Made by a program: the position numbers and the translations under genes | In this document: one piece after another, positions 4,955 to 52,630 of the stretch | How the letters are laid out: each line of letters starts with the position of its first letter | How positions within the stretch are numbered: the stretch's first letter is position 1 | Notes under the pieces: generated by a model | What the model saw: only the letters and a program-made list of their open reading frames with translations | Databases searched by the model: none | What the model was told of the DNA's origin: nothing | Source of the DNA: a virus | Taxonomy: Duplodnaviria > Caudoviricetes | Virus record (IMG/VR): IMGVR_UViG_3300032893_000060 | Location: 1 to 55,388 of that record | DNA length: 55,388 nt | Strand: one strand, 5' to 3'

Positions 4955-5433
4955 AGATGTTACCACCTTCTAAACGAGATATTATCTGGTTTCATACTCG
5001 ATATGATCGAGGAACTGAAGAGGAATGTTGGAATTGGAAGTTTGGTAGATTTGATAAACGTTATGGGCAGTACTGTTATAATAATTATCCGGTACTAGCC
5101 CATAGATTTGCCTATTTATTAGTTCATCCAGACTTTGACCAGTCGTTGTGTGTTTGTCATAGATGTGATAATCCTTTGTGTGTTAACCCTAGCCATTTAT
5201 TTTTAGGTACTAGCCAAGAGAATACAGCAGACAAAGTAACTAAAGGTAGGTGTGCTATAGGTGAGTTTAACGGTGCTTCTATTATTACAGAAGATATTGT
5301 AAAAGAGATACGAGCCAAACACTTGACTGGTCAATATTCACAAAGAAGACTCGCTAGAATTTTTAAGATAAGCCAAGCATCTATATGGGGTATTGTAAAC
5401 AATAGGTATTGGACACACGTTACTTTGCAATAA
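4951..5433 (+). CDS. Free-standing HNH homing endonuclease
   Basis: CWNW, AHRFAY, VCHRCDNPLCVNPSHLFLGTSQEN plus C-terminal HTH-like segment. Confidence 0.9.
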   Translation: MKMLPPSKRDIIWFHTRYDRGTEEECWNWKFGRFDKRYGQYCYNNYPVLAHRFAYLLVHPDFDQSLCVCHRCDNPLCVNPSHLFLGTSQENTADKVTKGRCAIGEFNGASIITEDIVKEIRAKHLTGQYSQRRLARIFKISQASIWGIVNNRYWTHVTLQ

Positions 5434-5435
5434 AC

Positions 5436-5452
5436 TTGGCATGAAACCTGCT
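5436..5452 (+). promoter_or_regulatory. sigma54 (-24/-12) promoter upstream of major capsid
   Basis: TTGGCATGAAACCTGCT; GG 5438-39 and GC 5450-51 at canonical spacing; intergenic. Confidence 0.8.
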
Positions 5453-5594
5453 ATCAATTAGTTGCTTCTACGACAAGGGCATGTCACTCTGAGCTACTTT
5501 AGCACAAGGGCATGTGAAGGAGATTGGCCTACGGTTTCCAATCATTCACATTAACAATTTGTGCTACTTTGTAGCCTAAGAGAAAGACAGTTAA

Positions 5595-12328: not shown

Positions 12329-14388
12329 GGATTGCTGTTCTATTGTTGATTGGATTCTCGCTGTGCCTTCACGCACAGGTCATCCCCACGAACTGTGTCA
12401 TCCCTTGGACTCCCGGCGTCACCGTCGGCGTTCGCGGCGGCATCCCTTCGGTGCCAGTGTGGACGAATGCAGTCACTGGGTCATATCATGTAGATAATAC
12501 GGGGGCGACGGATGCTGCACCGGGTATTCTGGCTGCGTGGACAGACTGCCCAAGCAACGGAGCGGTATTCCTGCCGGATGGCACCTACAACATTACAAAT
12601 GGCTTAAACCTTCCAAACCTTAATGGCAGGGTTCTTCGTGGCAATGGGTCCAACACGGTCCTAGTCGGCTGGATAAACTTCACCAGTAAGGAGACTGACA
12701 CGCCAGTCTGCGAGGTTAACGACATTCTTCCTGTGCACAAAGGCGACACCAACATCACGATGGTTCCAATGCCGTCTTTGTGGTCGTTCGCAGTGGGGGA
12801 TATGTGGGACATTTCAGGCGCTTTCTCGCGGACGAATCAGGCATTCCCGGTGTGCAATGTCGGAATGACGGCCTACACACTTTATCAGACATTGCTAGTC
12901 ACTGCCGTCACTTCGTCCAATATCTCGGTATGGCCCCCGGTGGTGCTGGACTTCACGAATGGCACTATTCTTAAGGACATTGCTGCGCCGTCCGCTATTG
13001 GCAAGAGGATCGGACTGGAGCACTACACCATCGTGCAAAGCAACTCTGTGGTGGTCGGTCCAGTAGCCCCATCCTGTCCGCAAAACTTCGGAGTTTTAAT
13101 GGATTCGTGGATGTATGATGTGACTGTGAAAGACACGGCTGCAAACTACGGCATTGACGGAGGGGCCACTGTTTGCTGCCAGATTGATAGCTGCCAGATT
13201 GGGCCGTGCTCGGCATCGGGCACTTCGACGGGCGGCGCTTTGATGACCGATTGTAGCGGGATGCTGATTCAAAATAATATATTCGATGGCCTGCCGCAGA
13301 ACGGCTTCCAGATATGGGGCGGGTTCTGCGGCAACGCATTCTTTGGAAACTACTTCACCAACGTGTCTGGAAACGGGGACATATTCTACCATGTTGACCA
13401 CTCTGCCATGAACCTCTACGAGCAGAACAAGTTCGCGTGGCAGATTATTCACGACGGATATACCAGCTCGTCTTCGCACGCGATTTACTTGCGGAACCAG
13501 GCTGGGCCGTGGGGGTTTGTACTAAAGCGGTGGGTGAGCAACGTAGCTATCGTGGGGAATGTGGTGCCGACTGGAACAGGGTATCCGATGGTTTACTCAC
13601 GTTATGAGACTGGGAGCGGGTTTAATCAACCTTTTCCAATTATGTACTTCGGTTACCCGAATATCGGCAACAACGCCGCTTCGGACTTTAGTCCGCCGGT
13701 GGACATGAACTATCCCGGCACGAATTGGAACAGCTACGGTGTGAACAACAATGGTTCGACGGTGCTGACCAACACGCAGCTTCTGACAACCAACCTGCAA
13801 GGCAACTTCTCGTGGCTGACACTGATAAATGGTAATCCTGCCGCGACTCCACTGCTATTTCAGGATACGGTTAATACGAATAACTACTACCCATACCCGA
13901 ACACCTTGGGAATCCAGCCGTCTGGTGGCATAGCCACTTGGAATAATGACGGCACGATCTACGCAGAGGCGAACGGTACGTCGAGTAACCTGCTAATTAA
14001 CATACCGCTAACTGTGAGCAATGGTTGGCGGGTGTGGGTCGGCGGCGTTGGGTTCTTCCAGCACATTACTACAAACCTGCTCGCAACGCTTACCGTGACC
14101 GGGAACAGCGTAGTCACAAACGTTGACGGTGTGTCCTCAAATGTTGTGTGGGATGCCAACGGAGTGCAAGCAATCCCCGACTCCTTGCTCTATCCTGGTG
14201 GTCCTAATGCGTGGCCCAGTCTCGCGGCGTGGTGGGGGACTAATAGGTGGCCTGCGATAGGCGTTGATAAGTCACCAATGATCACCCACATCCCGGCTGA
14301 GAACCGGTTTAATGGTCAGCAGAATGGAACAAATGTAGCGCCAGTAGTAATGAATATGCCCCCACACATACTTGGAGTAATGCAATGA
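12325..14388 (+). CDS. Exported pectate-lyase-like beta-helix protein (depolymerase/tailspike-like)
   Basis: MRIAVLLLIGFSLCLHA-Q; DNTGATDAAPGILAAWTDCPSNGAVFLPDGTY and VLRGNG are typical of Pectate_lyase_3-type N-termini. Confidence 0.75.
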   Translation: MRIAVLLLIGFSLCLHAQVIPTNCVIPWTPGVTVGVRGGIPSVPVWTNAVTGSYHVDNTGATDAAPGILAAWTDCPSNGAVFLPDGTYNITNGLNLPNLNGRVLRGNGSNTVLVGWINFTSKETDTPVCEVNDILPVHKGDTNITMVPMPSLWSFAVGDMWDISGAFSRTNQAFPVCNVGMTAYTLYQTLLVTAVTSSNISVWPPVVLDFTNGTILKDIAAPSAIGKRIGLEHYTIVQSNSVVVGPVAPSCPQNFGVLMDSWMYDVTVKDTAANYGIDGGATVCCQIDSCQIGPCSASGTSTGGALMTDCSGMLIQNNIFDGLPQNGFQIWGGFCGNAFFGNYFTNVSGNGDIFYHVDHSAMNLYEQNKFAWQIIHDGYTSSSSHAIYLRNQAGPWGFVLKRWVSNVAIVGNVVPTGTGYPMVYSRYETGSGFNQPFPIMYFGYPNIGNNAASDFSPPVDMNYPGTNWNSYGVNNNGSTVLTNTQLLTTNLQGNFSWLTLINGNPAATPLLFQDTVNTNNYYPYPNTLGIQPSGGIATWNNDGTIYAEANGTSSNLLINIPLTVSNGWRVWVGGVGFFQHITTNLLATLTVTGNSVVTNVDGVSSNVVWDANGVQAIPDSLLYPGGPNAWPSLAAWWGTNRWPAIGVDKSPMITHIPAENRFNGQQNGTNVAPVVMNMPPHILGVMQ

Positions 14389-24921: not shown

Positions 24922-27900
24922 ATGCCAATCGAACGAGAACTAACACCAGAAGAACTTGATCACTTAGCAGCGAGTGGTGTTGATCCACGACAGTATCGGG
25001 GAGTAAAAGTTCCTGTCTATAGTGCAGATGAAGCCAGAAACTTTAGACCTACTACTGAACAAGCTCCACCACAACCCTCTCGTTCTGCACTGTCAGCCAT
25101 TCTTCCAACACTCAAAGCACACGCAGGACAATATGCTGGTGGCGGAGCAGGAACATTAGGTGGTGCTGCATTAGGTGCAGAACTTGGTGCTTTAGGCGGT
25201 CCAGCCGCACCTGTCACTGTTCCATTAGGTGCTATATTAGGTGCTGTTAGTGGTGGCTTAAGTGGATCATATGTTGGGAATAAGGCTCAACAAGCTATAG
25301 TTCCAACTGACACTGAGCAACGCTTAGAACAGGAAGCCGCACAAGCTAGACAAGAATCGCCGTGGACTTCTATCGGAACAGACATAGTCGCTAGTATGTT
25401 GGCTGCTGGTGGAAAGCCATCGTTGGCTGCGGGAAAAGGATTAGCTGGATTGTTGCGTGGTGGAGTCAAAGCTATTGGAACACCGGCTGAACGTGCTCTT
25501 GCTAGTCAGGTGCCAGAACTAGCACCACAAGTGGCACAGAGATTGTCTGAGTATGGAAAAAATATACAGGCGTTGAGGCAGGCTGGAACTATGGCAGCCG
25601 TTAGTCCAGCGATTCAACTGGGTACTGGACTAGCGACTGGTGAGATGCCTTCTGGGAAGGAATTGGCCGCTTCGTCTATTGGTGGTGCATTGTTTAGTGG
25701 TCTTAATCCACTTGGTAGAAAAGCGTTTGGTGTTCACACTGAACCATCTCCTGAACCCCGCCAATCAACACCGTGGCCAGATAACATAAAGCCAGCTGAC
25801 ATTCCTGGATATGCGCTTGATCCGGACAAAGTCACACCTTGGACGGCGAAAGATGCTGAAGGGAAACCAGTGACGTCTGATAAGATAGTGAAAGCCGCAT
25901 ACAAGAAGTTAGTGCCTCCTCCAGAAAGGGCTACCAGCGAAGATCCAAATGAATATAGAGAGCAAGCAAAAGCAAGGGAAGCATACAATCTCACATCAGT
26001 CGAAGATATGCGGAAGGCTTTACATGAGGCCGAATTGGCGAAAGTTCAGCAACCTACACCTACTGTTGCAATCCCAACGACCGAGCCTACTGCTAAAATT
26101 GAACCTGAGAAAGTTCCTGTGGTTGAGCCTTCTAAGGTAGAGACACAGACTAAGCCTGCTGAGGAAGAGCCAGCATTAACACCTGAGCAGGAAAAGATGG
26201 CAGCGGAGCAAGATCAGAAACGAACTGACTTTGAAAGAGCTAGGGCTGAACAGATTGGCGAAGAACAATGGAATGCTGCACACCAATTAGCTATGGTTGG
26301 ACATGAGCAGCCGCCTAAGCCATTGAATGAGAATGCTGTTAGAATTAGTGCTAACCCAGAGACATTGATAAAGTCAGCTGTTAGCAGGTCAGAATCATTC
26401 GATAGGAATCTTTATGCGCCGCCCCAAAGCTCAGGTGGGGAAGGGAATAAGAGCATTATAGAAGCTATCAGAGTTGGACCTCCAATTCGTGAATTTTCTA
26501 ACAGAGTTAAATTTGAAAATGGTAATTCTGGCACCTCGGTGCAGCATGAATTAACTCGTATTGGTGCACAAAAAGAAAATCTATACAATAAATTAGCTAC
26601 CCATTTGCTAAATATTGCAGACAAAGATGCACTTAAAGTTCCTATAACATTTGATCCAACTGCGCGAAATTCTTACTATCATCCAAAGGGGGATTATATT
26701 CGTATAAAGACAGATAAAGATCACACTATTCTTCATGAGATAATCCATGCTACTACTTCTAAGAAGCTATATGCTGAATTGGGAGATGCTAGCCATAGAT
26801 CTTCTGATCATCCAATGCTAGATGAGTATCTAGAACTTGGTGATAATGAATCAATTAAAGAATTAATCAGATCTTTTAAAGAGGCAAGCAAAGTTGATCT
26901 ATCACCAGATAATTATGGATTAAAAAATCTACATGAATTTGTTTCAGAAACACTCTCTAATCCGAAATTTGCAAACAGACTTAATAATATTAAAACTACC
27001 AAAGGAACAACTGTCTTTGGTCGTATAGTAGAAGCTATTAAAAGATTGCTTGGTTGCAATCCATCTCAAGGATCATTGCTGGAACGTGTTCTTAAGCCAA
27101 CAGAGGAAATAATAAAACAAGAAAGATCTGGTAACAAAGTCGAATCAACATCTAATGAAAATCTCTACGCCCCCCATACTACCAAAGTAGAAGAACATGT
27201 AAGGGGTGGCATTGTAGGACGCGCATTCGAAGATACTGTCAATAAGATTCGGCAGAACAAGGTCAATCCAGAGGGTGCCAACAAGTTTGCTGATGCTGTT
27301 GTCAATACACACAATGACAAGGATGCTTTTAATGGACAGTGGACTCAGCCAATCATAGCGAGAGGCAGAGGATTCTCTGGCACTCAAGAAGAAAGAATGC
27401 AGCAAGCAGCATACTGGCAACTAACACACAAAGCTGTTCCACCTTCTAGCATGTTCCGAACTCCTGAAGAATATCAGCACTTCGTCCAGACGCACAAGAC
27501 TATTAAGAACATTGCTGATACGCACATAGCAATGAAAGAGCCAGTGATGGATGCTAATAGCAACAAGCGGCTGATGCGTAAGGATCCTAACTACTGGCCT
27601 ACACCACCAGCACCTAAGGTTATTGAGACAATGGCTGACTCAACTAAAAGTGCACAACAAGAAGCATATCACAATTCATTTGTAGACTTCAATAAACGCC
27701 TTGGGATGAATGGTGCTGAGGCAGAGAAAGCTTGGACTAACTTTAGGGAAGGCTTGGCACAACTACACAACTCTCAAGTTGGTAGTGCCGATTATTTCAA
27801 TGCCTCTCGCCGTGCTCACAATTCTTCCCTACCACCAGAAATGACTATCAAAGGCTTTACACGCGCTATGAGTTCCTACACAGCTCGTATGGCCGCCGAT

Positions 27901-29604
27901 ATGTCTGCTTACAAGAACATAGAGTCCAACCATGAAGTACTCGCAGCACTTGGTCAGACTCATGATGCATGGGGGTCACCAGTAAAACCGGACCCGTCTG
28001 GTAGGTCGATTGCTGGTGACCCCTCAGTGCAAGCAGCAATGGATGAGATTAGGGGTGAGAGAGGTGGAACTATGCAACAGCATATTGAGAACAAAGCTAG
28101 CGGTTTATTCACGGCTTTCTTCATTGGTCCACAAACGCAGCCACATAGATCAATCAGTGATTTGTTTACTTCAGCCGCACATTATGCCTCTAATCCATAT
28201 CAGATGGTTAGAAACCTGGCATCTACTGTAAGTGGATACAAAGAAGGATTTGACCATGCAATGAAAGGTGGTGCAATCAAAGATAGTGCACTACATCTTA
28301 GAGACTTCTTTGACCGGAATCTTACTGCGGCTGAACGCATTCAGGCATTAACGGCTTCAGTACGTCGTGCATATGGTTCAGAGTTTGTAGATCATCTCAA
28401 CGCTGGAATGCTCCAGACAATGTTTGAAAAGCATGTTATTCCTGAGACCATTGATAAAGCTAACATGGAAGACATGAGCGCAATGCAGCGCTTGCGGAAA
28501 TTAGATCCACAGTGGAACAAAGGAAAGACTTATAGTCCAGAAGAACAACAGCAGCTAGCTAGTAGGCTCATAGGCTATGTGCATGGAACAGGCGATGCCA
28601 GAACGATGCCACCTTGGATGATTCATGACAGTGAAATATCTGGATTCTTTCGCTTGTTTCATTGGGGTGTATCTCAGACAAATAGATTCTTTAGTGAGAT
28701 AGTAACCCCAGCGAAGAATGGTAACATAGGTCCATTGTTTAATGCTCTACTTGGTGGAGTAGCTGGTGGCTTAGCAATTAAAGAAATGAGGGAATTGATC
28801 GGTGGAAAGAAGGGACAGATACCTTCGTTGAAAGAAATGGCTGCAAATCCTAATGGAGGGATATTAGGAAACAAATCTTTGCTTGGATATGAATTGATTT
28901 CAGCTTTGTCATATACTGGCTTTGGTGGAATGCTATCAACCATAAGTAAGTTACCTGTTGACTGGATATACAAAAATACATCACAAGGTGCTACGTTTCC
29001 TCTAGATGAGGTTATCAGCGATACAGGAAAAACAATTAGTGACTTTACAACGGCTGCCGCTAACGATCCTCATTTCGATTGGTTTGATGCTACTAAGATG
29101 TTTTGGGAACATATGCTTACTACTAACTTCCAGCTAGGTCGCGTACTATACAATCAGGCACTTAATACTGGATTGTTTAATGGAACTCCAGAAGCTAGCA
29201 GAAAAGCATTGGCCGATAAGTTGGGTGAGTTACGCCGCTTTAGGATGGTTATTAATACGCCTTATGCTGAAACAGGAGAGCCGAGTAACCCCTATATGAA
29301 CATTGAACAGAAGAAGTTCCATCTAGAAGAAGATCCGATGAAAGCTGTTCAGATGTTGCCTGGGATGATTGCAACAATAATGCAGAAGTATGGTGACAAT
29401 CCTGATGTAATGATGGAAAAGATAAAGGCATTGAAGCAATCACAATATGCTACAATGCCTTCACTTGAGACACTGCCATTGCAGGCGATGAAGTATATTG
29501 GTTACTTACAGCAGAAGGAAGGACCCGAGTATGCCAATGCTGCATTGATGGACTTCATGCGGCATAAGATGCTGAACGAAGCAAAAGCTAGTGTCGTGCC
29601 CTAA
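24922..29604 (+). CDS. Large DNA-ejection protein with internal zincin-like metallopeptidase domain
   Basis: 1560 aa; Gly-zipper N-terminus; ILHEIIHA...LHEFVSE. Confidence 0.7.
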   Translation: MPIERELTPEELDHLAASGVDPRQYRGVKVPVYSADEARNFRPTTEQAPPQPSRSALSAILPTLKAHAGQYAGGGAGTLGGAALGAELGALGGPAAPVTVPLGAILGAVSGGLSGSYVGNKAQQAIVPTDTEQRLEQEAAQARQESPWTSIGTDIVASMLAAGGKPSLAAGKGLAGLLRGGVKAIGTPAERALASQVPELAPQVAQRLSEYGKNIQALRQAGTMAAVSPAIQLGTGLATGEMPSGKELAASSIGGALFSGLNPLGRKAFGVHTEPSPEPRQSTPWPDNIKPADIPGYALDPDKVTPWTAKDAEGKPVTSDKIVKAAYKKLVPPPERATSEDPNEYREQAKAREAYNLTSVEDMRKALHEAELAKVQQPTPTVAIPTTEPTAKIEPEKVPVVEPSKVETQTKPAEEEPALTPEQEKMAAEQDQKRTDFERARAEQIGEEQWNAAHQLAMVGHEQPPKPLNENAVRISANPETLIKSAVSRSESFDRNLYAPPQSSGGEGNKSIIEAIRVGPPIREFSNRVKFENGNSGTSVQHELTRIGAQKENLYNKLATHLLNIADKDALKVPITFDPTARNSYYHPKGDYIRIKTDKDHTILHEIIHATTSKKLYAELGDASHRSSDHPMLDEYLELGDNESIKELIRSFKEASKVDLSPDNYGLKNLHEFVSETLSNPKFANRLNNIKTTKGTTVFGRIVEAIKRLLGCNPSQGSLLERVLKPTEEIIKQERSGNKVESTSNENLYAPHTTKVEEHVRGGIVGRAFEDTVNKIRQNKVNPEGANKFADAVVNTHNDKDAFNGQWTQPIIARGRGFSGTQEERMQQAAYWQLTHKAVPPSSMFRTPEEYQHFVQTHKTIKNIADTHIAMKEPVMDANSNKRLMRKDPNYWPTPPAPKVIETMADSTKSAQQEAYHNSFVDFNKRLGMNGAEAEKAWTNFREGLAQLHNSQVGSADYFNASRRAHNSSLPPEMTIKGFTRAMSSYTARMAADMSAYKNIESNHEVLAALGQTHDAWGSPVKPDPSGRSIAGDPSVQAAMDEIRGERGGTMQQHIENKASGLFTAFFIGPQTQPHRSISDLFTSAAHYASNPYQMVRNLASTVSGYKEGFDHAMKGGAIKDSALHLRDFFDRNLTAAERIQALTASVRRAYGSEFVDHLNAGMLQTMFEKHVIPETIDKANMEDMSAMQRLRKLDPQWNKGKTYSPEEQQQLASRLIGYVHGTGDARTMPPWMIHDSEISGFFRLFHWGVSQTNRFFSEIVTPAKNGNIGPLFNALLGGVAGGLAIKEMRELIGGKKGQIPSLKEMAANPNGGILGNKSLLGYELISALSYTGFGGMLSTISKLPVDWIYKNTSQGATFPLDEVISDTGKTISDFTTAAANDPHFDWFDATKMFWEHMLTTNFQLGRVLYNQALNTGLFNGTPEASRKALADKLGELRRFRMVINTPYAETGEPSNPYMNIEQKKFHLEEDPMKAVQMLPGMIATIMQKYGDNPDVMMEKIKALKQSQYATMPSLETLPLQAMKYIGYLQQKEGPEYANAALMDFMRHKMLNEAKASVVP

Positions 29605-37472: not shown

Positions 37473-38437
37473 TGGTCATCATTGTGGAAAGGATCATAAG
37501 GTCTGCGCGTAAAGTCACGATTGAGCAATACCTTACCTACATTGTCGTTTACTGCACATACGTTATAGAATCGGCACAGGCCATACATACCTGAGCATGA
37601 CTCATTGAGAATGCCTTGTTTGGGCCAGTAGTTTAATGAAACATGACCAGATAATATAATGCAGAAGTTAGTTAGTTGTAACTTGAAAGCCGCAATATCA
37701 TCCTCACTATACTGATACACTTCGCCCCGTGCATACTCATTGTTATTAGAGTTAGACTTAAGGAAGATGGCATCAATGAAAGCACCCATCTTTGTAGCAC
37801 CTATACGACCCAATATGCTATCTGGATTGTTCTGCGCCTCCAGCTTACATGCTAATGTATATACTCGTAGTTGTCTGCTAAGACGAAACTTAGCCATGTA
37901 TTCATCTTTCTTGTATGATGCTGTAGTCTTCCAATCACGTATAGCGAAGCAGCCATTTTTGAACTTGCCGATTGTGTCGATGGTGCCACACAACCATACT
38001 CGAATGTGATTGTCTTCGTAGAATAGAATCCGAAATGTTATCTCAGTTGCTGGGCCATCACTAACAGTTCCATCTGGCTTTTTAACTGGAATAGTAATAA
38101 CGTCGAAAGTGCTCTCACTCTCTATCTGTTGCCATAGGTTGTAGCATGTGGAAACTAAATGTTTGGAGTCAGCCATCCATTGTTGTGTCTCTTTCGGTGG
38201 TAACTTACGCCGCTCAAATGCTTTCTCAGCCGCCTCTCTTGCGGCAGGAAAGTAGCCACCAGACTTATACATTGTGTCTATGAACTTATGGACTGCGCTT
38301 CCATATACTATAGATGCGTTTGGGATGCTGTGGTATGCACCTAGATTGTCGCCTATTTCTCCGATGGTTGTGCGACGGAAGTTGAGGATACAACCAGATG
38401 TGGATAGGACAGTGGTGCCTATGTTGAATTCGATCAT
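37469..38437 (-). CDS. PD-(D/E)XK (Cas4/AddB-like) exonuclease
   Basis: YGSAVH, GTID...IRDWKT, QLRVY, C-terminal Cys cluster. Confidence 0.85.
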   Translation of the reverse strand: MIEFNIGTTVLSTSGCILNFRRTTIGEIGDNLGAYHSIPNASIVYGSAVHKFIDTMYKSGGYFPAAREAAEKAFERRKLPPKETQQWMADSKHLVSTCYNLWQQIESESTFDVITIPVKKPDGTVSDGPATEITFRILFYEDNHIRVWLCGTIDTIGKFKNGCFAIRDWKTTASYKKDEYMAKFRLSRQLRVYTLACKLEAQNNPDSILGRIGATKMGAFIDAIFLKSNSNNNEYARGEVYQYSEDDIAAFKLQLTNFCIILSGHVSLNYWPKQGILNESCSGMYGLCRFYNVCAVNDNVGKVLLNRDFTRRPYDPFHNDDQ

Positions 38438-38439
38438 AG

Positions 38440-38664
38440 CTAGTCAGGTTGAATACCATTTGCTAAACATGAGGCAGTATTTGCTGCATATGAAAGAGAC
38501 CTATCCATGTCTTCAATCTTATGCTCAAGAACAAATATTCGGTCTACCAATAATGTTAGTGCCTGAACAATTATTTCTTTATCAGCATGATCGTTAACAG
38601 TAACTACAGGTGCATTTAGGTTCTTAATACAGTTAAGCAATTTGGTTTTATTTAGATCACTCAC
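38440..38664 (-). CDS. Hypothetical protein
   Basis: 74 aa in operon. Confidence 0.55.
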   Translation of the reverse strand: MSDLNKTKLLNCIKNLNAPVVTVNDHADKEIIVQALTLLVDRIFVLEHKIEDMDRSLSYAANTASCLANGIQPD

Positions 38665-38903
38665 TTCTTTCTCCTTTTAATTATAGCATCCACATCTACT
38701 CCATTCTCTCTCAATAACTCTAACGCCAACTTCTTTTGTGGCGATAAGTAAATTGGTGGTTGTGCTGGTTCTTGTTTCACTCTATGTTGAACCATCTCAG
38801 GACGAGTCACAGTATAATATGGCTTGAGGATTTCATCTAATTCTTTGTCGGATAACTTCTCAAGCTTGTCGGCAGTTAAGTCGGCTAGCTCGTCGATTGT
38901 CAT
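38661..38903 (-). CDS. Hypothetical protein
   Basis: 80 aa, ATGA-coupled. Confidence 0.6.
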   Translation of the reverse strand: MTIDELADLTADKLEKLSDKELDEILKPYYTVTRPEMVQHRVKQEPAQPPIYLSPQKKLALELLRENGVDVDAIIKRRKK

Positions 38904-39526
38904 ACGTTAATCTTAATGACTTTGACCGACTCACTCTTAATGCTAGCCTTCACATTAGTCAATTGCTGCATCTCGATCTTAAGCCGCAGTATCTCATCAG
39001 GTGTTAGTGTCAACCCTTCTTGACAGAATGGAACTGTATTGTCTGACTCAAGCCAATTGTCTAGATCACGCCGCCATTTTGGCTGGTCAACCGTTGGTAC
39101 AGTTTCTTCGGCTGACAGTTCAGCACCATCAGCTAGTCCCATGATATACTCAATGATGATACCTACCTTAATCTTCTTTCGAATCTTGACAATCTCATAC
39201 CAACGCTTATACTTCCCATCTGGATCTAGCTTCTCGCAGAGATAACGGATTGATTGATTGATGCGAGTGTAGAGAGTATTGGGAGTCATCCCATCTTCTG
39301 TGCACCAGATGTTGTATCGAAAGGTCAAGCTGTTTCCAGACTGAATCATCTTGTCAATTTCTTTCTTCATCTGGATAGCGTATATCTCCTTATAGTATGG
39401 GGCATTGGAATGCCGTGACCAGCCGTGAGGGCGGTTCGAGACGATCATGTCCACAAACTTGCTGGCTACTTCTGGTGAAGGAAAGATACTGTCGGCAGCT
39501 TTCTTTATTTGTTCATTATCATCCAT
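38900..39526 (-). CDS. Hypothetical protein
   Basis: Start moved to MDDNEQ because the upstream ATG lies within the tRNA-like element. Confidence 0.65.
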   Translation of the reverse strand: MDDNEQIKKAADSIFPSPEVASKFVDMIVSNRPHGWSRHSNAPYYKEIYAIQMKKEIDKMIQSGNSLTFRYNIWCTEDGMTPNTLYTRINQSIRYLCEKLDPDGKYKRWYEIVKIRKKIKVGIIIEYIMGLADGAELSAEETVPTVDQPKWRRDLDNWLESDNTVPFCQEGLTLTPDEILRLKIEMQQLTNVKASIKSESVKVIKINV

Positions 39527-39541
39527 AATATTAAAGTTAAG

Positions 39542-39654
39542 TGAGCGTGGCAGGATTTGAACCTGCATGTATCACATTTCCAATACCTTAGGCGACATGA
39601 TACTAGCCCAGTTTACCTGGTAAACATAGCGTCTTTACATTCCGCCACACGCCC
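39542..39654 (-). ncRNA. tRNA-like RNA (Leu-type shell, enlarged centre, no encoded CCA)
   Basis: Acceptor GGGCGTG/CACGCTC+A, TGGCGGAAT...AGACGC D arm, GCAGG-TTCAAAT-CCTGC T arm; 113 nt. Confidence 0.7.
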
Positions 39655-40054
39655 ATAAATCGTTCCCTCTAGTCTCCACCGTGAAGTGAAGGACGCCGAA
39701 GCATCATGTTCCACACACTAGAGGGATGAGTGGTCCGTTACTATTCCACGAACCAGCAGGAAGTCAGACAGTTATTAAGATGAACTGTCGGCAACTATAC
39801 TACCACTAGTTCCCCATCTAGTGAGTGTTAGGCTCGCACCCTTCGCTCACTCTATAGTGGCAGCTAACCAAGCCAGAAGATATTGCTACCTTGCACAGCT
39901 TGGAAATAAACTAGCCGCTTAGCCTTATATGGCATCCCTGTCACAGGATTCTGTTTTTGTAGGTTTGCAGTGACATGCTAAACCACTTTGTTCAGATATA
40001 GAGCAATGCTCCATGCGGCCAAAATCAAAGATCGTCGAGGGCACCTAGAATGTA

Positions 40055-40071
40055 AGCATTTTTCGTGCCAC
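40055..40071 (-). promoter_or_regulatory. sigma54 promoter for the ncRNA/replication operon
   Basis: Minus strand GTGGCACGAAAAATGCT; canonical spacing; intergenic. Confidence 0.8.
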
Positions 40072-40118
40072 ATTTTTGCTATTGTATTCAGTTGTATAAG
40101 GATGATACAAGAGTAGAA

Positions 40119-40283
40119 TTACTCATCTTCTTCTACAGTTACTAAAGGTTCATACCATTTAATGTTCCAGAACATGGACTTAGATTCTTTTGGTATTACA
40201 GCCTTTGTTATTTCTGATTCTGACCTAGTGTAATTAGGATCTGTTATCTGAACATCTACAATCACATCAATTCTTAATTTCAT
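40119..40283 (-). CDS. 54-aa protein coupled to the sigma54 activator (not in ORF track)
   Basis: MKLRIDVIVDVQITDP...EEDE; ATGA overlap with activator stop. Confidence 0.55.
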   Translation of the reverse strand: MKLRIDVIVDVQITDPNYTRSESEITKAVIPKESKSMFWNIKWYEPLVTVEEDE

Positions 40284-41158
40284 ATTCTTCCTAATGTATT
40301 ATACCGAATCACCATACGTTGCAATGATCTTACATTCAAACTCAAATCAAAGCTATCAACCATCGACCTATACTTATCCCAAAACTTATCACCACCTGGC
40401 AATGACAATACTATCGGTTCTATATCACACTTACGTTCTCGGAGTGGATTAACAGTTAGTTCCAACGTGCTTATCCTCGCATATAGATCTTCACGGAATG
40501 TCCCTGCCTTAACCATTGCTTTCAGATCACGATTAGTAGCAAACACAAACTTGCAGTCAACTGGTTCAATCTCTTTCCCTCCCACTTTCCTAACTGTCTT
40601 TTCCTGGATCACTCTCAACAACTTCGCCTGCACCCACATCGGCAACTCTCCTACTTCATCAAGGAACATCACACCACCTGTCGCCGCTTTGATTAGTCCA
40701 TCTGTTGTCTTACCGGCTCCAGTGAATGCACCACTGACATATCCGAACAGTTCACTCTCGACTAGTTCAGAAGGAAAGCCGGCACAGTTTGCAGCTTTGA
40801 TTACACCTGGACGATTGTTGATTTGTGACTTCGCTATTAGTTCTTTACCTGTTCCTGTCTCACCAAAGACTAGCACCTCGTACGGCGTCTTGCTCATCTT
40901 CAGTGCATCTTCTTTCATCTGGATAGTCTCTGGATCGACTGTGACAAATTTTTGGAGCCACAATTCTCCTGCACTGAACTGTGATTGATAGCGCCAGCTA
41001 CCATCAGGATTTGATACGATGATGAATGGAAGATTGTTTCGTTCAATCAGTATGCGGGCTGGGTCCATGCAGTCCGCACCATTAGCTTGTAATGCTTGTA
41101 ACTTCCTTTCAAAGAAGTCTATCTCACTTTGGGTTAGTTGCTTTGTTTGTTGGTCCAT
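40280..41158 (-). CDS. sigma54-dependent activator (bEBP, NtrC/NifA-family AAA+), no receiver or HTH domain
   Basis: GETGTGKE, ESELFGY.SGAFTGA, FLDEVGEL, QAKLLRVIQE, ATNRDL, FREDLYARI, LRERK, NVR. Confidence 0.95.
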   Translation of the reverse strand: MDQQTKQLTQSEIDFFERKLQALQANGADCMDPARILIERNNLPFIIVSNPDGSWRYQSQFSAGELWLQKFVTVDPETIQMKEDALKMSKTPYEVLVFGETGTGKELIAKSQINNRPGVIKAANCAGFPSELVESELFGYVSGAFTGAGKTTDGLIKAATGGVMFLDEVGELPMWVQAKLLRVIQEKTVRKVGGKEIEPVDCKFVFATNRDLKAMVKAGTFREDLYARISTLELTVNPLRERKCDIEPIVLSLPGGDKFWDKYRSMVDSFDLSLNVRSLQRMVIRYNTLGRI

Positions 41159-41471
41159 ATATTTTCTCTCTCCATGCTTTCCATATTGAAACTGCTTTCT
41201 TTCCAGTATATGTTATGTAATGATTAGCTGTTAGTTGTAACACACATACTGGAGTCCATCTGTCTAATATATCCATTCGCTTAGCTCTTTCTAGCATTGT
41301 CTCACCTGGATATAGTGGATGGAAGTGGGCTATCTCATCTCCTACTACTTGACCTCTTACTGTTGGTGCTTTGGGCTTTGTGTAGAAGACTGATCCCTCT
41401 TGATTGCGATAGAAGAAGGATGCATACTGCACTTTCCCTAGATCTAGGACAGTGCGATTAGAAGTCATCAT
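41124..41471 (-). CDS. Hypothetical protein
   Basis: 115 aa overlapping both neighbours. Confidence 0.6.
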   Translation of the reverse strand: MMTSNRTVLDLGKVQYASFFYRNQEGSVFYTKPKAPTVRGQVVGDEIAHFHPLYPGETMLERAKRMDILDRWTPVCVLQLTANHYITYTGKKAVSIWKAWREKIYGPTNKATNPK

Positions 41472-41676
41472 TGTTTGGTTTGTTTAGTGCAGCCAATAGG
41501 ATTGCTTCCATTATACCTGTATCTTGTGCGTTTATCAATAGATTACGCTCACCTTCTTTGATGCTTAGAATGTGGACATAATCATCTGACATTGGATCGG
41601 CTGGATCTGCTTTGGCTGCGTCAACTTCGATTTCGATTGTCATATATCCTTTCTCCAGCACTTGAATACTGGACAC
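41458..41676 (-). CDS. Hypothetical protein
   Basis: Up to 72 aa; true start may be the internal ATG at the ligase stop. Confidence 0.5.
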   Translation of the reverse strand: MSSIQVLEKGYMTIEIEVDAAKADPADPMSDDYVHILSIKEGERNLLINAQDTGIMEAILLAALNKPNNDDF

Positions 41677-42506
41677 CGTGGTTTATCTTTCATTCCATGT
41701 TTCTGATACTTGAACGTTACTACTTTCCCCCTAAAGTAATCTTGGTTATCCCATATATCCTTTCGTTCTTTGTCTGTGAACCCAGAACCTATTTTGAATG
41801 GTCCGTATATATCGTGATGAACCCATAGTGCACCGAGAGTGTCTTCGGGGATCATGCCTGCGTTACAGGATGAATGCTTCGCTAGCCCAAAGTTATCGGC
41901 CGTCTCTGGATTGGCATTGTGCATTCGTTCTTCGAAGTCTGTGACAACTGCTTCGGCATCAAGGAATGGTTTGAGCTTCATTAGATAACCTTCGCGAAGA
42001 GTGGAACGGCCACATTTATATGGAGCATCAGCGCGGCGGAGCATAATGCCTTCATATCCTTCTTGAAGAAATGTTTTCATCTTCATCTGAAGTTGCATCT
42101 CATCATCAACTCTCTCGGGCCACAGGAATTGATGACAAGGAAAATGATGTTCACCAATAAACAATGCAAGTTCGTCAAGCCGCTCGATGTAAGACCATTC
42201 TGGATGAGCCCAACAATCAAATACTTTATAGATGAAGTCTGGTGCACCATCTATAGACATGACGCCAGATGATGTCTCTTGGAAGTTGTTGCCAACTACT
42301 AGTTCTCCGTCTAAATATCGTAAGCTAGCAGAAGATAAACATTTGCATATAAAGTTATTCGCTATTGGTTTAAATGTTCTACTAACTACTCGACCATCAC
42401 CAAGAACCAAGCACCTGATCCCATCAATCTTTGGTGTCGCTAATAGTGGATATTCTAGCTTGCTAACATCTTCAATGGTCGCTGCTAACATTGGTCTCGT
42501 TATCAT
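41640..42506 (-). CDS. Minimal ATP-dependent DNA ligase
   Basis: PMLA, PKIDGIRC, LDGEL, YEGIMLR, KLKP, IGSGFTD. Confidence 0.92.
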   Translation of the reverse strand: MITRPMLAATIEDVSKLEYPLLATPKIDGIRCLVLGDGRVVSRTFKPIANNFICKCLSSASLRYLDGELVVGNNFQETSSGVMSIDGAPDFIYKVFDCWAHPEWSYIERLDELALFIGEHHFPCHQFLWPERVDDEMQLQMKMKTFLQEGYEGIMLRRADAPYKCGRSTLREGYLMKLKPFLDAEAVVTDFEERMHNANPETADNFGLAKHSSCNAGMIPEDTLGALWVHHDIYGPFKIGSGFTDKERKDIWDNQDYFRGKVVTFKYQKHGMKDKPRCPVFKCWRKDI

Positions 42507-42657
42507 GTCGTATTACTTTCACTTCATTGATTTCGAGCTTGTGCTCACTATTGTTTAGTGGACTGTCAAGCAGATAACGCTCTATGTGCTCACAGATTGT
42601 GAAGTTATCTACGCCAGTCACTACAGTTAATTCAATCCGGATTGTTTTCTTTTCCAT
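42472..42657 (-). CDS. Hypothetical protein
   Basis: Start taken at MEKK; overlaps neighbours. Confidence 0.5.
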   Translation of the reverse strand: MEKKTIRIELTVVTGVDNFTICEHIERYLLDSPLNNSEHKLEINEVKVIRHDNETNVSSDH

Positions 42658-42964
42658 AGTTCTTCCTCGATACAAGCATATTCTCGAAGTGAAAGTGAAA
42701 CGGCTTTTCAATTGGAATACTTCCCTCCCAATATGCAGTTAGATATCCATATAAAGCATGAGTTTTGGCTGATTGTATGGTTGCAATACCTTCATAATGT
42801 CCAGTCCACTCTCCTTTCTGGTTACCAATTCTAAGCCGCCATATGAAACCAGTTTTATCATTTATTACATCGACTGTTACTTCTTCATTAGTATCTGGAA
42901 ATAAGTATGTTGATGTATTTGTTATTCGTTTTTCTAATTCTATTTGATCAGTTTTTCTAGTCAT
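42632..42964 (-). CDS. Hypothetical protein
   Basis: Start taken at MTRK overlapping the helicase end. Confidence 0.55.
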   Translation of the reverse strand: MTRKTDQIELEKRITNTSTYLFPDTNEEVTVDVINDKTGFIWRLRIGNQKGEWTGHYEGIATIQSAKTHALYGYLTAYWEGSIPIEKPFHFHFENMLVSRKNYGKENNPD

Positions 42965-45305
42965 TTGTTTCTTTTCCATTTCCATTCTCACTTTCTCCTT
43001 CTTCGTCAGTGTCACCCTCATCAATGAGGGATGATTCATCGTTCATTGCGTCTTTGGTTAGGTCAAGCACTCGCTTAACTTCCTCGTCTCTACCACCACC
43101 AAAGATTATTTGTTGCCAACTCTCCCTCTGTCTAACTACCGCACTCAAGCACCTGAGCTTCTGACTATATACTTGCCCCATCCTTACTTCGATCGTGCCT
43201 GCGTAGCAGTAGACGTTTTGGACTGTCGGTGATAGGCTTGTTAATCTAGGAACGCGTCCCACTCCTTGGACGAGTTCAATCGCATTGTAGGTGACAACAA
43301 TGAATGTTTCACGAGGTCGTACTGGAACTTTGGCAATATCTTCTTCAAAGGCATAACCGCTTTCCTTACGTCTGCACTTGAAGCTGGTAAGTTCATCTGT
43401 ATGGTGTAAGGACAGGCCCACCCCTCCAGCCTTAAGTGTATATATACAGTAGAGCGATTCCCCTCTCTGGAACTTGTCGATTTCATTTTGTCTTGTTATT
43501 TGATCTTGTGGACCTAAGCGCCACTCTTCCGGATACTGGACTAGAACTCTGTCCTCTACATCATCTAATCCCATATCTCCAATCATTTCATCTGCTTCTA
43601 ATCCCATTGCTTTGAGCTTATCGCTCAACGCTTTAATCTTTGCTTTAGACTTTTGCTTTTCTGTAAGTTGTGTTTGACCACCACCCCAAATGAGGGAGAT
43701 GTTGTCACGGGACACACCATACTTTTCGATAAGGAGTTTCTGTATCTCAATAAGAGTAGCTTTGAATTTAACTGCTGCAACAGCGGCTTTGCCTCTCTTG
43801 GTGACAGCTTCGTGCATATCGTGAGCAAAATGTTCCGCATGACAGAATTCTGCTGCCATTGCGAACTTAAGAAGTACGACGAGATAGCAAATGCCCGCGT
43901 TATCACCTGCCTCTTTTGCCGCATCAATCTTTGCTTTCTCTTTAAGGAATCTTTCCCATGCATCTTCATAGAATTTACGTTTTGCATCAGACTCGAATTG
44001 AATTATCTTAACACCATTAATTGCATCGAACTGTGGCTTAACACCCTTTACTCTTACTATCCAAGGTTCCAAATCATCTATTAGTCTGTCTACAGCCGCT
44101 TTATTGAAGTCAGTTGGCTTACTTGGACTACTGATCATGGATGCGTATGCATTCCAATTGTCGTTTGTGAGTATGCTACCCTTTGGAAACCCCAAATGCT
44201 CTAGTGGTCTGTGAGTTGCGACTGCGAATGCTTGTGCTTCGGAGACGCGAGCAAATGGAGTAGCACTAATGCAAACCAGACAAGACTTCCCAAGAGGAAG
44301 TTCATTATACTTATAGATGATTCGTGACTGCTTCGATTTTTTGTTCTTTGCTCCTTGTGATTCATCTAGATAGAGTGGGACTGGCTGAAGGCCATTCTTC
44401 CACTGTAGGTCCATTATTTCTTTGCCATTCTGAACTACTAACTTCTCACGCAACCAATACTCACCAGCGGCTGAACGCAACTGTTCAATGTTTGTAATCT
44501 CTGTGTCGACATTGGGCTTAAGATTAAACAAGCCACCAAATACACGATGTGTCTGAGTGAGGATAGTTGCTTTAGTTACATAGAGACTTTTAATGTGAGA
44601 CCATGTGCGGCTGTCACTCCAACCTATGTCCCTAAGGTGTCGCTCAATCATTGCGACAATGAATGTCTTGCCAGTCCCTGTCGGTGCAAGAATCAATAGC
44701 CCTGTCTTCCCTTCATCAACGATCTTCCTTATTGCTTCTGCCGCTGCTTTCTTTTGGAACCAGTATTCATAGAGTGCGACACTGACATTCGGTGAACGGG
44801 TATAGCCATAATTGTCTTCTGCCTTAAGGATAATTTTCGGAGCTTCTTGGATAGGTGTGCTTTGTATAGTGCGGTTTGTATCGCCCACTCGAAGCGGCGC
44901 TGACTCCACAGTAGTTTGGCTCTTTCCATTCTCACTTTGGCTTTCAGTTCCCGAGCCGATGGGACGTTGAGCTTCTTCAGTTCGAGCAGGAAGCTCAACC
45001 ACATTCTGTCTATCTGACTTTGGCTTTTCATATGTTGTATCTATTGCTGTTTGTACTATCTCACTCTGTAATTTGGTTTCTAATTCGTCTACTTGTTTCT
45101 TGAGAAATTCTTTTAGTTCTGGGAATGTCAGCGGACGATTGGCTGTCTTGGTAATCTCAGTATCAGGGATGCCTAAGTGTCGCTGTAGATCATGCCAATC
45201 TTTGATTTGGTGAAACGAGAATGCGGAGACTATGCGTGCGTGAAGCAATCGTAGATTGTCACGTTGACGACGTTTTATGGTTTCAGGTGAGGGAGGACGG
45301 GCCAT
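42957..45305 (-). CDS. Superfamily 2 helicase-like ATPase
   Basis: APTGTGKT, LDESQ, SATP, GGVGLSLH, QGVGRVPR. Confidence 0.85.
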   Translation of the reverse strand: MARPPSPETIKRRQRDNLRLLHARIVSAFSFHQIKDWHDLQRHLGIPDTEITKTANRPLTFPELKEFLKKQVDELETKLQSEIVQTAIDTTYEKPKSDRQNVVELPARTEEAQRPIGSGTESQSENGKSQTTVESAPLRVGDTNRTIQSTPIQEAPKIILKAEDNYGYTRSPNVSVALYEYWFQKKAAAEAIRKIVDEGKTGLLILAPTGTGKTFIVAMIERHLRDIGWSDSRTWSHIKSLYVTKATILTQTHRVFGGLFNLKPNVDTEITNIEQLRSAAGEYWLREKLVVQNGKEIMDLQWKNGLQPVPLYLDESQGAKNKKSKQSRIIYKYNELPLGKSCLVCISATPFARVSEAQAFAVATHRPLEHLGFPKGSILTNDNWNAYASMISSPSKPTDFNKAAVDRLIDDLEPWIVRVKGVKPQFDAINGVKIIQFESDAKRKFYEDAWERFLKEKAKIDAAKEAGDNAGICYLVVLLKFAMAAEFCHAEHFAHDMHEAVTKRGKAAVAAVKFKATLIEIQKLLIEKYGVSRDNISLIWGGGQTQLTEKQKSKAKIKALSDKLKAMGLEADEMIGDMGLDDVEDRVLVQYPEEWRLGPQDQITRQNEIDKFQRGESLYCIYTLKAGGVGLSLHHTDELTSFKCRRKESGYAFEEDIAKVPVRPRETFIVVTYNAIELVQGVGRVPRLTSLSPTVQNVYCYAGTIEVRMGQVYSQKLRCLSAVVRQRESWQQIIFGGGRDEEVKRVLDLTKDAMNDESSLIDEGDTDEEGESENGNGKETND

Positions 45306-45484
45306 ATTATATCTTGTCTGTTAATACAACTTCATTAAGTATATCATGAAGTCTATCTGATGGTAAGAGATAGCTTGGTGCAGATTGATAACGTTCAACT
45401 GCATCTCGTATCCCCTGTTTCCAAGCATCGAGTTGGATTTGTTTTATATGATCTATGCAAGATTGATCTGTTGGAAATGTATTA

Positions 45485-45697
45485 TCATGAATTTCCTTGA
45501 ACCACTCTTCTGCTGTTTTTATGTTTATTTAATATATTTTCTATATCCTTGCCATTAAATCTTTCTCTAATCTGTTGCGGTGTCTGTTGCATTAATTGAC
45601 GATGCTCAATCTCTTCTAGTTGAGTAAGTGAGTAGAAGTATCCTACTTTGCCATCGTCTAGTTCGATAATGGTTGGTGAGAGGTCAATGGGGTTCAT
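45485..45697 (-). CDS. Hypothetical protein
   Basis: 70 aa, ATGA-coupled. Confidence 0.55.
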   Translation of the reverse strand: MNPIDLSPTIIELDDGKVGYFYSLTQLEEIEHRQLMQQTPQQIRERFNGKDIENILNKHKNSRRVVQGNS

Positions 45698-48003: not shown

Positions 48004-48020
48004 AGCAATTTGCGTGCCAA
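48004..48020 (-). promoter_or_regulatory. sigma54 promoter, near-perfect consensus
   Basis: Minus strand TTGGCACGCAAATTGCT; intergenic. Confidence 0.9.
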
Positions 48021-50942: not shown

Positions 50943-50959
50943 AGCATTTATCGTGCCAA
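50943..50959 (-). promoter_or_regulatory. sigma54 promoter
   Basis: Minus strand TTGGCACGATAAATGCT; intergenic. Confidence 0.85.
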
Positions 50960-52107: not shown

Positions 52108-52153
52108 CACTAATCTGCTATTTTGTTCTACTTGACTTGTCCCATGGTATTTT

Positions 52154-52562
52154 GATTGTATTGTATCAGGGTTTATATATGTGTAATTTCCATTATAGTA
52201 TATATAGATATAAATTATATAAAATATATTACTATATACTATTATGTATAAGGTGATACAATATAATACAATCTGATATAATTTAATAAACTATATATAC
52301 GGGCCACTAAGAAAAAATCATTTGATACAATCTAATACATTTTGAATTATATCATAATAGGTATATGAGCTATACTACTATAATACAAACTACTATTATC
52401 CTATCTATCATTAGCTTTGCTTCTATAAGCATAACTAATAGTCACCCAATTTGATTGAGTATTGAAATGACGATGACGGGTAGACCCCCAGAAATGAAAA
52501 TGCGAACTGGAACTATACTAATCTCCCAATACAACAATTTCCAATTTCAGACCGATACAATC
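52154..52562. other. AT-rich divergence region with GATACAAT repeats (candidate origin or genome end)
   Basis: Very AT-rich core between the two arms, with direct and inverted (T)GATACAAT copies. Confidence 0.5.
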
Positions 52563-52613: not shown

Positions 52614-52630
52614 TTGGCATGAGAATTGCT
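52614..52630 (+). promoter_or_regulatory. sigma54 promoter at head of the packaging/structural arm
   Basis: TTGGCATGAGAATTGCT; GG 52616-17, GC 52628-29. Confidence 0.85.

Follow-up and report, generated by a model that had tools for sequence, protein, structure and literature searches.

Which promoters could be served by a sigma-54 activator that is encoded on a phage genome and lacks both sensory and DNA-binding domains? This question is raised by the IMG/VR virus record IMGVR_UViG_3300032893_000060, which was analysed over its whole length of 55,388 bp (hereafter the window) and which encodes, on its minus strand, a protein of 292 amino acids (aa) related to bacterial enhancer-binding proteins (bEBPs). 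Sigma-54 RNA polymerase does not open promoters without a bEBP, and the routes by which phages are known to take over transcription include own polymerases, sigma-70-family factors, sigma appropriators, anti-terminators, and clamp-coupled activators. The window is a whole virus record with direct terminal repeats (127 bases are identical between both ends) and a completeness rating of 100%, and represents the complete genome of an uncultivated tailed phage. Based on the protein itself, five sigma-54-type -24/-12 sites in the window (P1 to P5), and related viral loci, we consider it likely that this phage uses the host sigma-54 holoenzyme together with the 292-aa activator for the expression of its own genes.

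The activator gene and its two parts are located as follows:

40280 to 41158, minus strand: minimal bEBP (sigma-54 activator) gene, 292 aa, ATG start, recognised by its open reading frame (ORF), PF00158, motifs, and fold
40283 to 40936, minus strand: AAA+ sigma-54-interaction domain and lid (residues 75-292), containing Walker A, GAFTGA, Walker B, arginine fingers, and sensor II
40979 to 41158, minus strand: N-terminal domain of ~60 aa with a helix-helix-beta hairpin arrangement (secondary structure from models)

The protein can be assigned to the AAA+ family of sigma-54 activators because all comparisons of sequence and fold agree on this point. The Pfam family Sigma54_activat (PF00158) matches residues 75-234 with an E value of 6.6e-54 (182.5 bits vs a cut-off of 20.2). 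An earlier note on this DNA had described a 292-aa ORF with the core bEBP motifs, and all of them were located by script: Walker A (GETGTGKE, residues 99-106), ESELFG (134-139), GAFTGA (143-148), Walker B (FLDEVGE, 165-171), sensor I (FATN, 206-209), FREDLYAR (221-228), and sensor II (NVRS, 275-278). Sigma54_activat is matched by all 67 aligned family members, among which K105, D167, E168, R228, and R277 show no variation, with T208 and R222 shared by at least 90%; the GAFTGA loop is nearly invariant across the family, the variants found in relatives being GSFTGA, GAYTGS, and GSYTGS. An AlphaFold2 model built from this 67-sequence alignment has a mean predicted local distance difference test score (pLDDT) of 95.8, with the last helix at residues 276-289. 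Its best Foldseek matches in the PDB are the AAA+ domains of FlrC, FleQ, NtrC1, LuxO, and PspF (E values of 1e-23 to 1e-18, with PspF at ~3e-19), with target-normalised template modelling (TM) scores of 0.77-0.82 against these isolated AAA+ domain chains, and a profile search of PDB sequences returned FleQ and NtrC1 at E ~3e-63 and PspF at E ~5e-51.

Canonical three-domain enhancer-binding proteins also carry a DNA-binding domain and a sensory domain (receiver, GAF, PAS, or V4R); the searches showed neither of these in the protein, which therefore does not belong to that class. Fifteen residues remain beyond the NVR of sensor II, and no match to HTH_8, Response_reg, GAF, or PAS was obtained from Pfam even at E <= 1; none of the 67 aligned family members matches an HTH_8, receiver, GAF, or PAS family in Pfam either. 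The description given in the earlier note, according to which the protein ends about 15 aa past sensor II with no helix-turn-helix (HTH) and has an N-terminus unlike a receiver or GAF domain, therefore stands (at ~60 aa, the N-terminal domain is too small for either), and the hidden Markov model search that it proposed showed Sigma54_activat to be present and HTH_8 and Response_reg to be absent. NCBIfam models for PrdR, RtcR, NorR, NifA, NtrC, PspF, and other regulators match the protein via its central domain only and all fall far under their curated cut-offs (e.g., PrdR with 197.9 bits vs 795), so the activator is not an equivalog of any named regulator. Among PHROGs it belongs to phrog_7998 (E 3e-34), a group of 'unknown function'. 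At least 119 further database clusters with 49-65% identity to the activator and lengths of 229-396 aa were detected, many of them on 47-58 kb contigs and bearing automatic names at most; judging from these clusters, the ORF is not a chance frame.

Five sites of the -24/-12 type were identified in the window, one of which precedes the gene for the major capsid protein:

52615 to 52630, plus strand: P1, sigma-54-type -24/-12 site TGGCATGAGAATTGCT, position weight matrix score 21.1
5437 to 5452, plus strand: P2, sigma-54-type site TGGCATGAAACCTGCT, matrix score 25.1
50943 to 50958, minus strand: P3, sigma-54-type site TGGCACGATAAATGCT, matrix score 22.4, at the head of a leftward block of small ORFs
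48004 to 48019, minus strand: P4, perfect TGGCAC-N5-TTGC site, matrix score 24.3
40055 to 40070, minus strand: P5, sigma-54-type site TGGCACGAAAAATGCT, matrix score 20.7, at the head of the replication block
5595 to 6905, plus strand: major capsid protein gene, N4 gp56-like by structure, first gene after P2

P1 and P3 point away from each other out of a central 1.66-kb region. P1 heads a rightward block that comprises small ORFs and an RNase T-like exonuclease gene and then continues over the terminal repeat to the portal gene, P2 is located 144 nt ahead of the capsid gene and the structural block, and P4 heads a block with a SNF2-type helicase, DNA ligase, and the activator gene. The activator gene is the second-last ORF of this block; it is followed by a small 54-codon ORF and then by P5, which lies 210 nt past the activator stop codon and 49 nt past the small ORF. 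The latter is not conserved, and in relatives the promoter site lies 3-50 nt past the stop codon of the activator gene. The proposal in the earlier note that the activator drives a middle/late transcription machine fits the site ahead of the structural genes and proved too narrow for the others, which stand ahead of early-looking small ORFs and of replication genes.

These sites differ from the background of the genome in number, score, and placement. The pattern TGGCAYN6TGC has seven matches in the window vs 1.34 expected, and none of 100 shuffles reached seven; five of the matches have the longer form TGGCAYG-N5-TGCT and the remaining two are a palindromic pair within the portal gene. With a weight matrix built from the sites of other loci (L048-L127, to which two of the four relatives described below contribute a single site each), the five sites score 20.7-25.1 and the next best genome position 12.2, and scores of at least 10 are found 12 times in the real genome vs 0-8 times in shuffled genomes. 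None of the five falls within an ORF of at least 100 aa, and each has the orientation of the genes behind it, an arrangement with a chance of ~3e-6 because only ~16% of the genome is outside such ORFs. When automatic ORF calls of at least 50 aa are used, four of the five are in called intergenic DNA (7% of the genome), and P3 falls inside a short opposite-strand ORF between two leftward genes. The canonical sigma-54 consensus is YTGGCACG-N4-TTGCW. P1 to P5 have the GG and GC doublets spaced 10 nt apart that define -24/-12 elements, and the positions left free by our search pattern also agree with the consensus in 50 unique sites of other viral loci: a T stands before TGG in 40 sites and before TGC in 34, a G after CAY in 38, and a T after TGC in 49. 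When enriched words were counted without bias in oriented intergenic sequence from five genomes, TGGCATG and TTGGCATG came out on top (z 9.5 and 9.6); other enriched words were chiefly stop-codon-rich.

Comparative analyses may show whether gene and sites belong together. Four IMG/VR genomes of 49-53 kb encode activator homologues at 52-61% identity and agree with the phage in domain layout and in synteny: the ligase precedes the activator gene and a conserved gene of ~210 aa comes after it, such that the activator gene lies between DNA ligase and replication genes in all five genomes. The relatives contain 8, 11, 6, and 10 sites, respectively, vs 0, 0, 1, and 1 matches of a control pattern (the motif reversed, not complemented). 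A site directly follows the activator gene in each of the five close genomes, and a site is present 136-147 nt ahead of the capsid gene in four of them, the gene start call being ambiguous in the fifth. A profile-guided scan of IMG/VR yielded 158 relatives, and in the best 80 loci (477 kb) that were kept, the gene strand carries 59 sites and the opposite strand one, vs 14 matches of the control pattern. After removal of five loci in which the gene or its downstream flank was cut off, 63 loci with a short activator (<= 340 aa) and 12 with a longer, host-like bEBP remained. A site within 400 nt past the stop codon is present in 50 of the 63 short-activator loci (43 of 56 unique proteins) and in 0 of the 12 loci with the longer form. 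In none of the 63 does the reverse strand have a site there, and in none is a site found in the 400 nt that precede the start codon. Homologues, for which the earlier note had suggested a survey of viral databases, thus number at least 119 clusters in the protein search and 158 relatives in IMG/VR, and the situation that the note named as fatal to its reading, i.e., relatives that keep the gene and lack -24/-12 promoters, is not what we observed, given 6-11 sites in each close relative and a downstream site in 50 of 63 loci.

A quick maximum-likelihood tree of 154 core domains (midpoint rooting; two rows without a Walker A match omitted) placed 58 of 60 short viral activators and one 355-aa viral form in a single clade of 59 tips, which has a Shimodaira-Hasegawa-like approximate likelihood ratio test (SH-aLRT) support of 93 and contains none of the 79 sampled cellular rows. 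The cellular rows come from stretches that were located via shared peptide words; tblastn confirmed 190 matches, of which the best 80 were taken, and these show 37-54% identity over the core only. On this comparative evidence, gene and promoter form a long-standing pair specific to phages. When the activator was compared with deposited phages by tblastn, 64 records were matched, all at <60% identity; names and annotations suggest that most of the 60 matches listed are regulators of the host type, in records that are contaminated or unverified, and MT835867, which was inspected, encodes a full receiver-AAA-HTH regulator. The gut phage record MT121960.1 (20080-25601, locus L209) contains an unannotated bEBP-like open frame of 307 codons with an intact GAFTGA, a Walker A degenerate at its lysine (GETGTDKE), and no strict -24/-12 site within 2.5 kb, and this frame may be a different phage offshoot of the family, possibly with a dead ATPase.

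The part of the protein ahead of the AAA+ core is relevant to the question of whether an enhancer is needed. The helix-helix-hairpin of the N-terminal domain is conserved over the close clade (21-sequence alignment), and the domain has a pLDDT of 72 when modelled alone and of 92-97 within the full-length model; a search with its fold gave nothing convincing (best Foldseek match in the PDB, E 0.98; best VIA-align Z, 3.6). Distant members of the short-activator clade have merely 14-19 residues ahead of the AAA+ core, and since these members without the domain still have the downstream site, the domain is not essential to the pairing of gene and site. The regions upstream of P1 to P5 share six 7-mers vs 5.5 in random windows and two 8-mers vs 0.8, that is, no excess of shared words or repeats was found among the five promoter-upstream regions. 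Considering the missing domains, the lack of shared upstream words, and the engineered activator fragment DctD250 discussed below, the phage activator is probably enhancer-independent, and on the same basis we infer that it is constitutive.

The following mechanism may be proposed. The host sigma-54 holoenzyme would bind P1 to P5 and wait there as a closed complex. The 292-aa protein, predicted to be a bare AAA+ activator with its GAFTGA loop and ATPase site intact and with no regulatory or HTH domain, would form a ring, reach sigma-54 from solution without an enhancer, and open the phage promoters by hydrolysing ATP. Most phage genes would be transcribed in this way by the host sigma-54 RNA polymerase holoenzyme, and because the activator gene itself lies within the P4 block, its expression would be self-reinforcing after a first dose. 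As a side effect, host sigma-54 promoters would be fired as well, a possibility raised in the earlier note and to be expected because the AAA+-only DctD250 is described as promiscuous in the passages concerned (PMC3844500). At the sequence level, we observed the family, motifs, and fold of the protein, the domains that it lacks, sites that are conserved and placed like promoters, and a phage-specific clade in which gene and site are inherited together; from these observations we deduce that host sigma-54 holoenzyme binds the sites, that activation is driven by ATP, constitutive, and independent of an enhancer, and that there is a feedback loop. In general, the reading put forward in the earlier note has gained support, as each of its computational predictions that could be run was borne out. 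The broader idea that a whole widespread lineage of ~50-kb phages (contigs from wetland, freshwater, and marine sources) might have abandoned the customary sigma-70-centred programme and run essentially all of its gene expression, early-looking blocks, replication, and capsid included, on host sigma-54 by means of an enhancer-free, self-amplifying activator is tentative, and we lean slightly away from it.

Several known activators resemble the phage protein in part. PspF of Escherichia coli is likewise a natural bEBP in which an N-terminal regulatory domain is missing, and the AAA+ domains of the two are homologous. PspF has retained a C-terminal helix-turn-helix and binds to an enhancer, with PspA exerting control in trans, whereas the phage protein stops 15 residues past sensor II. 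FlgR of Helicobacter pylori, CtcC of Chlamydia, and FleT of Rhodobacter sphaeroides are sigma-54 activators that work without enhancer binding of their own, and two of them, FlgR and CtcC, have retained a receiver domain through which phosphorylation controls them. The phage protein shares with all three the lack of a DNA-binding domain; they are, however, cellular genes serving cellular regulons, and the phage protein is a viral gene accompanied by viral promoters. DctD250, an engineered AAA+-only fragment of Sinorhizobium meliloti DctD, is reported in the passages that describe it to activate sigma-54 promoters enhancer-free and from solution, and to be constitutively active and promiscuous across the Salmonella sigma-54 regulon (PMC3844500). 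As far as those passages go, the phage protein resembles DctD250 (~250 aa) in consisting of the sigma-54 activation domain with no receiver or DNA-binding domain, and differs from this laboratory truncation of a cellular regulator in being a natural gene with an additional N-terminal domain of ~60 aa and promoters of its own. Activity has been shown for DctD250 in these passages (PMC3844500), and the phage protein is known here from its sequence and model.

The nearest phage case that we found, judged from the passages describing it, is Htm (Gp204) of Mosigvirus AV110, which has a bEBP-like AAA+ structure, no C-terminal HTH, and an N-terminal domain of ~80 aa, and which is proposed there to act on host transcription (bioRxiv 10.64898/2026.10.06.757011). 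According to the same passages, Htm has no GAFTGA loop and carries DD rather than DE in its Walker B, and they report no sigma-54 promoters on the phage genome (bioRxiv 10.64898/2026.10.06.757011), whereas the protein analysed here keeps both GAFTGA and DE and is accompanied by conserved phage-borne -24/-12 sites. In the parts of the literature on T4 and N4 that we draw on, T4 late transcription depends on the sliding clamp gp45 with gp55/gp33, and N4 uses a virion polymerase, then the phage RNAPII, and then the host polymerase (PMC2988020, PMC4496689). The present phage would resemble both in that host polymerase is re-targeted or replaced and blocks of phage genes are read in order; T4 late transcription is likewise enhancer-like and activator-dependent, and the capsid protein of our phage is N4 gp56-like by structure. 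Both systems, as far as these sources describe them, use phage sigma-like factors or polymerases with sigma-70-family machinery, in contrast to sigma-54 with an AAA+ activator. Papers on the role of rpoN in phage sensitivity explain it, in the passages concerned, by host physiology or leave it open (PMC8744999; bioRxiv 10.1101/2022.11.14.516531). In a full-text literature search, which did not extend to most subscription journals, we found no phage for which the use of sigma-54 together with a GAFTGA activator of its own has been demonstrated or suggested, and the earlier note had likewise known of no characterised phage of this kind. The parts are known and their deployment is new.

We also examined the genome for other transcription factors and for signals that might serve early expression. 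It contains no match to Sigma54_DBD or Sigma70_r2, and the four closest relatives have no Sigma54_DBD or RNA_pol matches. The suggestion in the earlier note that the activator works in place of a phage RNA polymerase or sigma factor thus agrees with the searches as to sigma factors (no gene of the sigma-54 or sigma-70 family was recognised), and as to polymerases it has the backing of a T7-type search that was run without a positive control. Two further features deserve mention in this context:

24922 to 29604, plus strand: gene for an internal virion/ejection protein of 1560 aa, last gene of the structural block
52150 to 52420, no strand: AT-rich stretch between the divergent P3 and P1, with repeated TGATACAAT/TGATATAAT words and several inverted repeats

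Residues 581-761 of the 1560-aa protein match a PHROG named 'virion RNA polymerase' (E 2.8e-10) and include a conserved HExxH. The protein also matches the internal virion/ejection proteins 9sfn_G and 8vb2_A in the PDB, over residues 601-742 when searched alone and over positions 626-783 of a five-sequence profile. We rejected it as a virion RNA polymerase because no polymerase domain is matched; the PHROG match is confined to 581-761. In appearance, it is an ejection protein that includes a metallopeptidase-like module. Matches to sigma-70-type promoters are not enriched in the genome (34 vs 38.6 expected). Five of the 12 matches to the extended -10 word TGNTAYAAT in the genome fall in 52160-52354 of the AT-rich stretch, and this strict word is not enriched in the four relatives; as a guess, the stretch may hold sigma-70-type early promoters or a replication origin. 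A Shine-Dalgarno-like 4-mer precedes 13 of 49 gene starts, many of which follow A-rich runs, and such sparse Shine-Dalgarno words might hint at a host with weak Shine-Dalgarno use, of the Bacteroidota type; Bacteroidota promoter words are not enriched in the genome (2 vs 1.42 expected; 41 vs 44.75 expected).

A number of observations weigh against the use of host sigma-54 by this phage as proposed above. The activator gene is itself downstream of the sigma-54 sites P3 and P4, so that the first dose of activator must come from elsewhere, and no conserved sigma-70-type promoter was found ahead of the gene: a near-consensus match (11/12) at 41538-41510, 350 nt upstream of the activator gene, was rejected as its promoter because it has no counterpart in the three relatives checked. 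The absence of a T7-type RNA polymerase match in the genome comes from the search without a positive control mentioned above. Among the close relatives, L002 has GSYTGS in place of GAFTGA and G004 has just two sites above a matrix score of 18, and a strict site within 400 nt is missing from 13 of the 63 short-activator loci. Because a shared peptide word guided the choice of cellular rows for the tree, their sampling is biased. A scan of cellular genomes for the host gave matches to the core domain only, at 37-54% identity and in many phyla, and among sequencing runs holding this sequence there was no RNA run, the sole holder being a DNA run that may be its source. Finally, both 'constitutive' and 'enhancer-independent' may be wrong, because the N-terminal 60 aa could bind DNA, a host protein, or a signal.

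Other interpretations of the locus were weighed against the use of host sigma-54 with a bare activator. If the N-terminal 60 aa bind DNA or a tethering factor, the activator would be a true enhancer-binding protein with an unconventional module, and the conservation of this domain in the close clade (21 sequences), its pLDDT of 92-97, and its lack of an assigned function would be in line with such a role. We regard enhancer dependence as unlikely, considering that the domain matches no Pfam DNA-binding family, that no upstream word or repeat is common to the five promoters, and that distant clade members lack the domain and nevertheless keep the site directly after the gene. It is less probable still, and indeed quite improbable, that the activator is devoted to host manipulation only, turning on host sigma-54 regulons (nitrogen assimilation, stress, and repair), with the phage sites being incidental. 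Sites that are enriched, intergenic, co-oriented, and kept in position across diverged genomes are not expected from incidental matches, even though the sources seen in part do describe a bare AAA+ bEBP domain as promiscuous on host sigma-54 promoters (PMC3844500) and the loss of rpoN as altering infection by some unrelated phages via host physiology (PMC8744999; bioRxiv 10.1101/2022.11.14.516531). Host effects may therefore occur in addition to the use of phage promoters.

It might also be that sigma-54 is not the factor that reads the motif and that a polymerase or regulator of the phage, so far unrecognised, does so instead, in which case the role of the AAA+ protein would be unrelated to the sites. 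Most of the phage proteins have no family match, and a stretch of the 1560-aa protein is shared with the 'virion RNA polymerase' PHROG (E 2.8e-10); however, this protein matches ejection/internal virion proteins around HExxH and not a polymerase domain, the motif fits the sigma-54 consensus at fixed as well as free positions with GG and GC 10 nt apart, and it co-occurs with the one protein class dedicated to sigma-54, all of which makes this reading very improbable. That host DNA was mis-assembled or mis-binned into a viral contig was considered because most bEBP matches by tblastn among deposited phages are host-type regulators in contaminated or unverified records. Such an artefact has a close to negligible probability here: the record is a closed genome with terminal repeats, synteny from the ligase to the replication genes is conserved in five genomes, the short form recurs on many 47-58 kb contigs, and the viral forms make up a clade of their own, with the best cellular matches at 37-54% identity in the core only.

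The organisation of the remaining genome is that of two opposite arms. Rightward genes extend from ~52.6 kb across the terminal repeat to 29.6 kb, and leftward genes from ~51.6 kb down to 29.7 kb. The leftward arm comprises genes for the SNF2-type helicase, an ATP-dependent DNA ligase, the activator, a PD-(D/E)XK nuclease, an AAA_24 protein, family-A DNA polymerase pieces, and a primase-helicase, and the rightward arm includes the RNase T-like exonuclease, an HNH endonuclease, beta-helix tail proteins (weak Pfam matches below the cut-offs), and a portal of the P22/SU10 type, which was recognised solely via ESM Atlas features and structure. The capsid protein, for which Pfam, PHROG, and tblastn searches gave no match, corresponds to ESM Atlas structure rows named Phage_capsid_3/4 and N4-gp56 (TM 0.58-0.77). 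Judged on capsid and portal, the phage is podovirus-like. Neither capsid nor portal has a tblastn match in 50,697 deposited phage records, no deposited phage was matched by 38000-45500 in a megablast comparison, and the majority of the proteins have no Pfam or PHROG match; the phage represents a deep-branching uncultivated lineage. Directly upstream of the capsid promoter lies the following gene:

4951 to 5433, plus strand: HNH endonuclease gene (phrog_59, E 5e-31), between a 401-aa gene and P2

In the leader between P2 and the capsid gene (5453-5594), the direct repeat ACAAGGGCATGT occurs twice within ~45 nt. A GC-rich island at 8000-14000 (0.51-0.54 vs ~0.42 elsewhere) spans four large rightward genes, one of which has a weak beta-helix match, and could represent a tail-fibre or receptor-binding module acquired by recent exchange.

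The first protein gene after P5 is the conserved downstream neighbour of the activator gene:

38900 to 39568, minus strand: conserved neighbour gene, 222 aa (208 aa from the second Met)

Homologues of 205-284 aa follow the activator in the five close genomes (including L002-L005) and their alignment contains invariant P, Y, C, W, and R positions; no match was found in Pfam, PHROG, or PDB sequences. Comparison with these homologues suggests that the true start is probably the second Met, at 39526. A tRNA-like element is present at 39542-39654 (minus strand), in the ~490-nt leader between P5 and the neighbour gene. It scores 32.3 bits with the Rfam tRNA model and has good acceptor, D, and T arms and ~40 extra bases in the anticodon arm; default ARAGORN missed it, and with introns allowed it was called as tRNA-Met(CAT) with a 28-nt insert. 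An intron-bearing tRNA-Ser call occupies the equivalent position in one relative (G001), and a normal tRNA-Met lies 112 nt past a sigma-54-type site in another (G002).

The use of sigma-54 by this phage can be approached with reporter assays in laboratory strains, for which cultivation of the phage is not needed. To our knowledge, enhancer-independent sigma-54 activation has so far been known mainly from engineered truncations, and if our interpretation is true, the phage activator would be a natural case of it. An activator of ~250-290 aa and a 16-nt promoter would then also make a compact two-part orthogonal switch for synthetic biology. For the large uncultivated clade to which the phage belongs, rpoN would be an essential host factor and hence both a resistance locus and a limit on host range, and a new transcription strategy would be added to phage biology.

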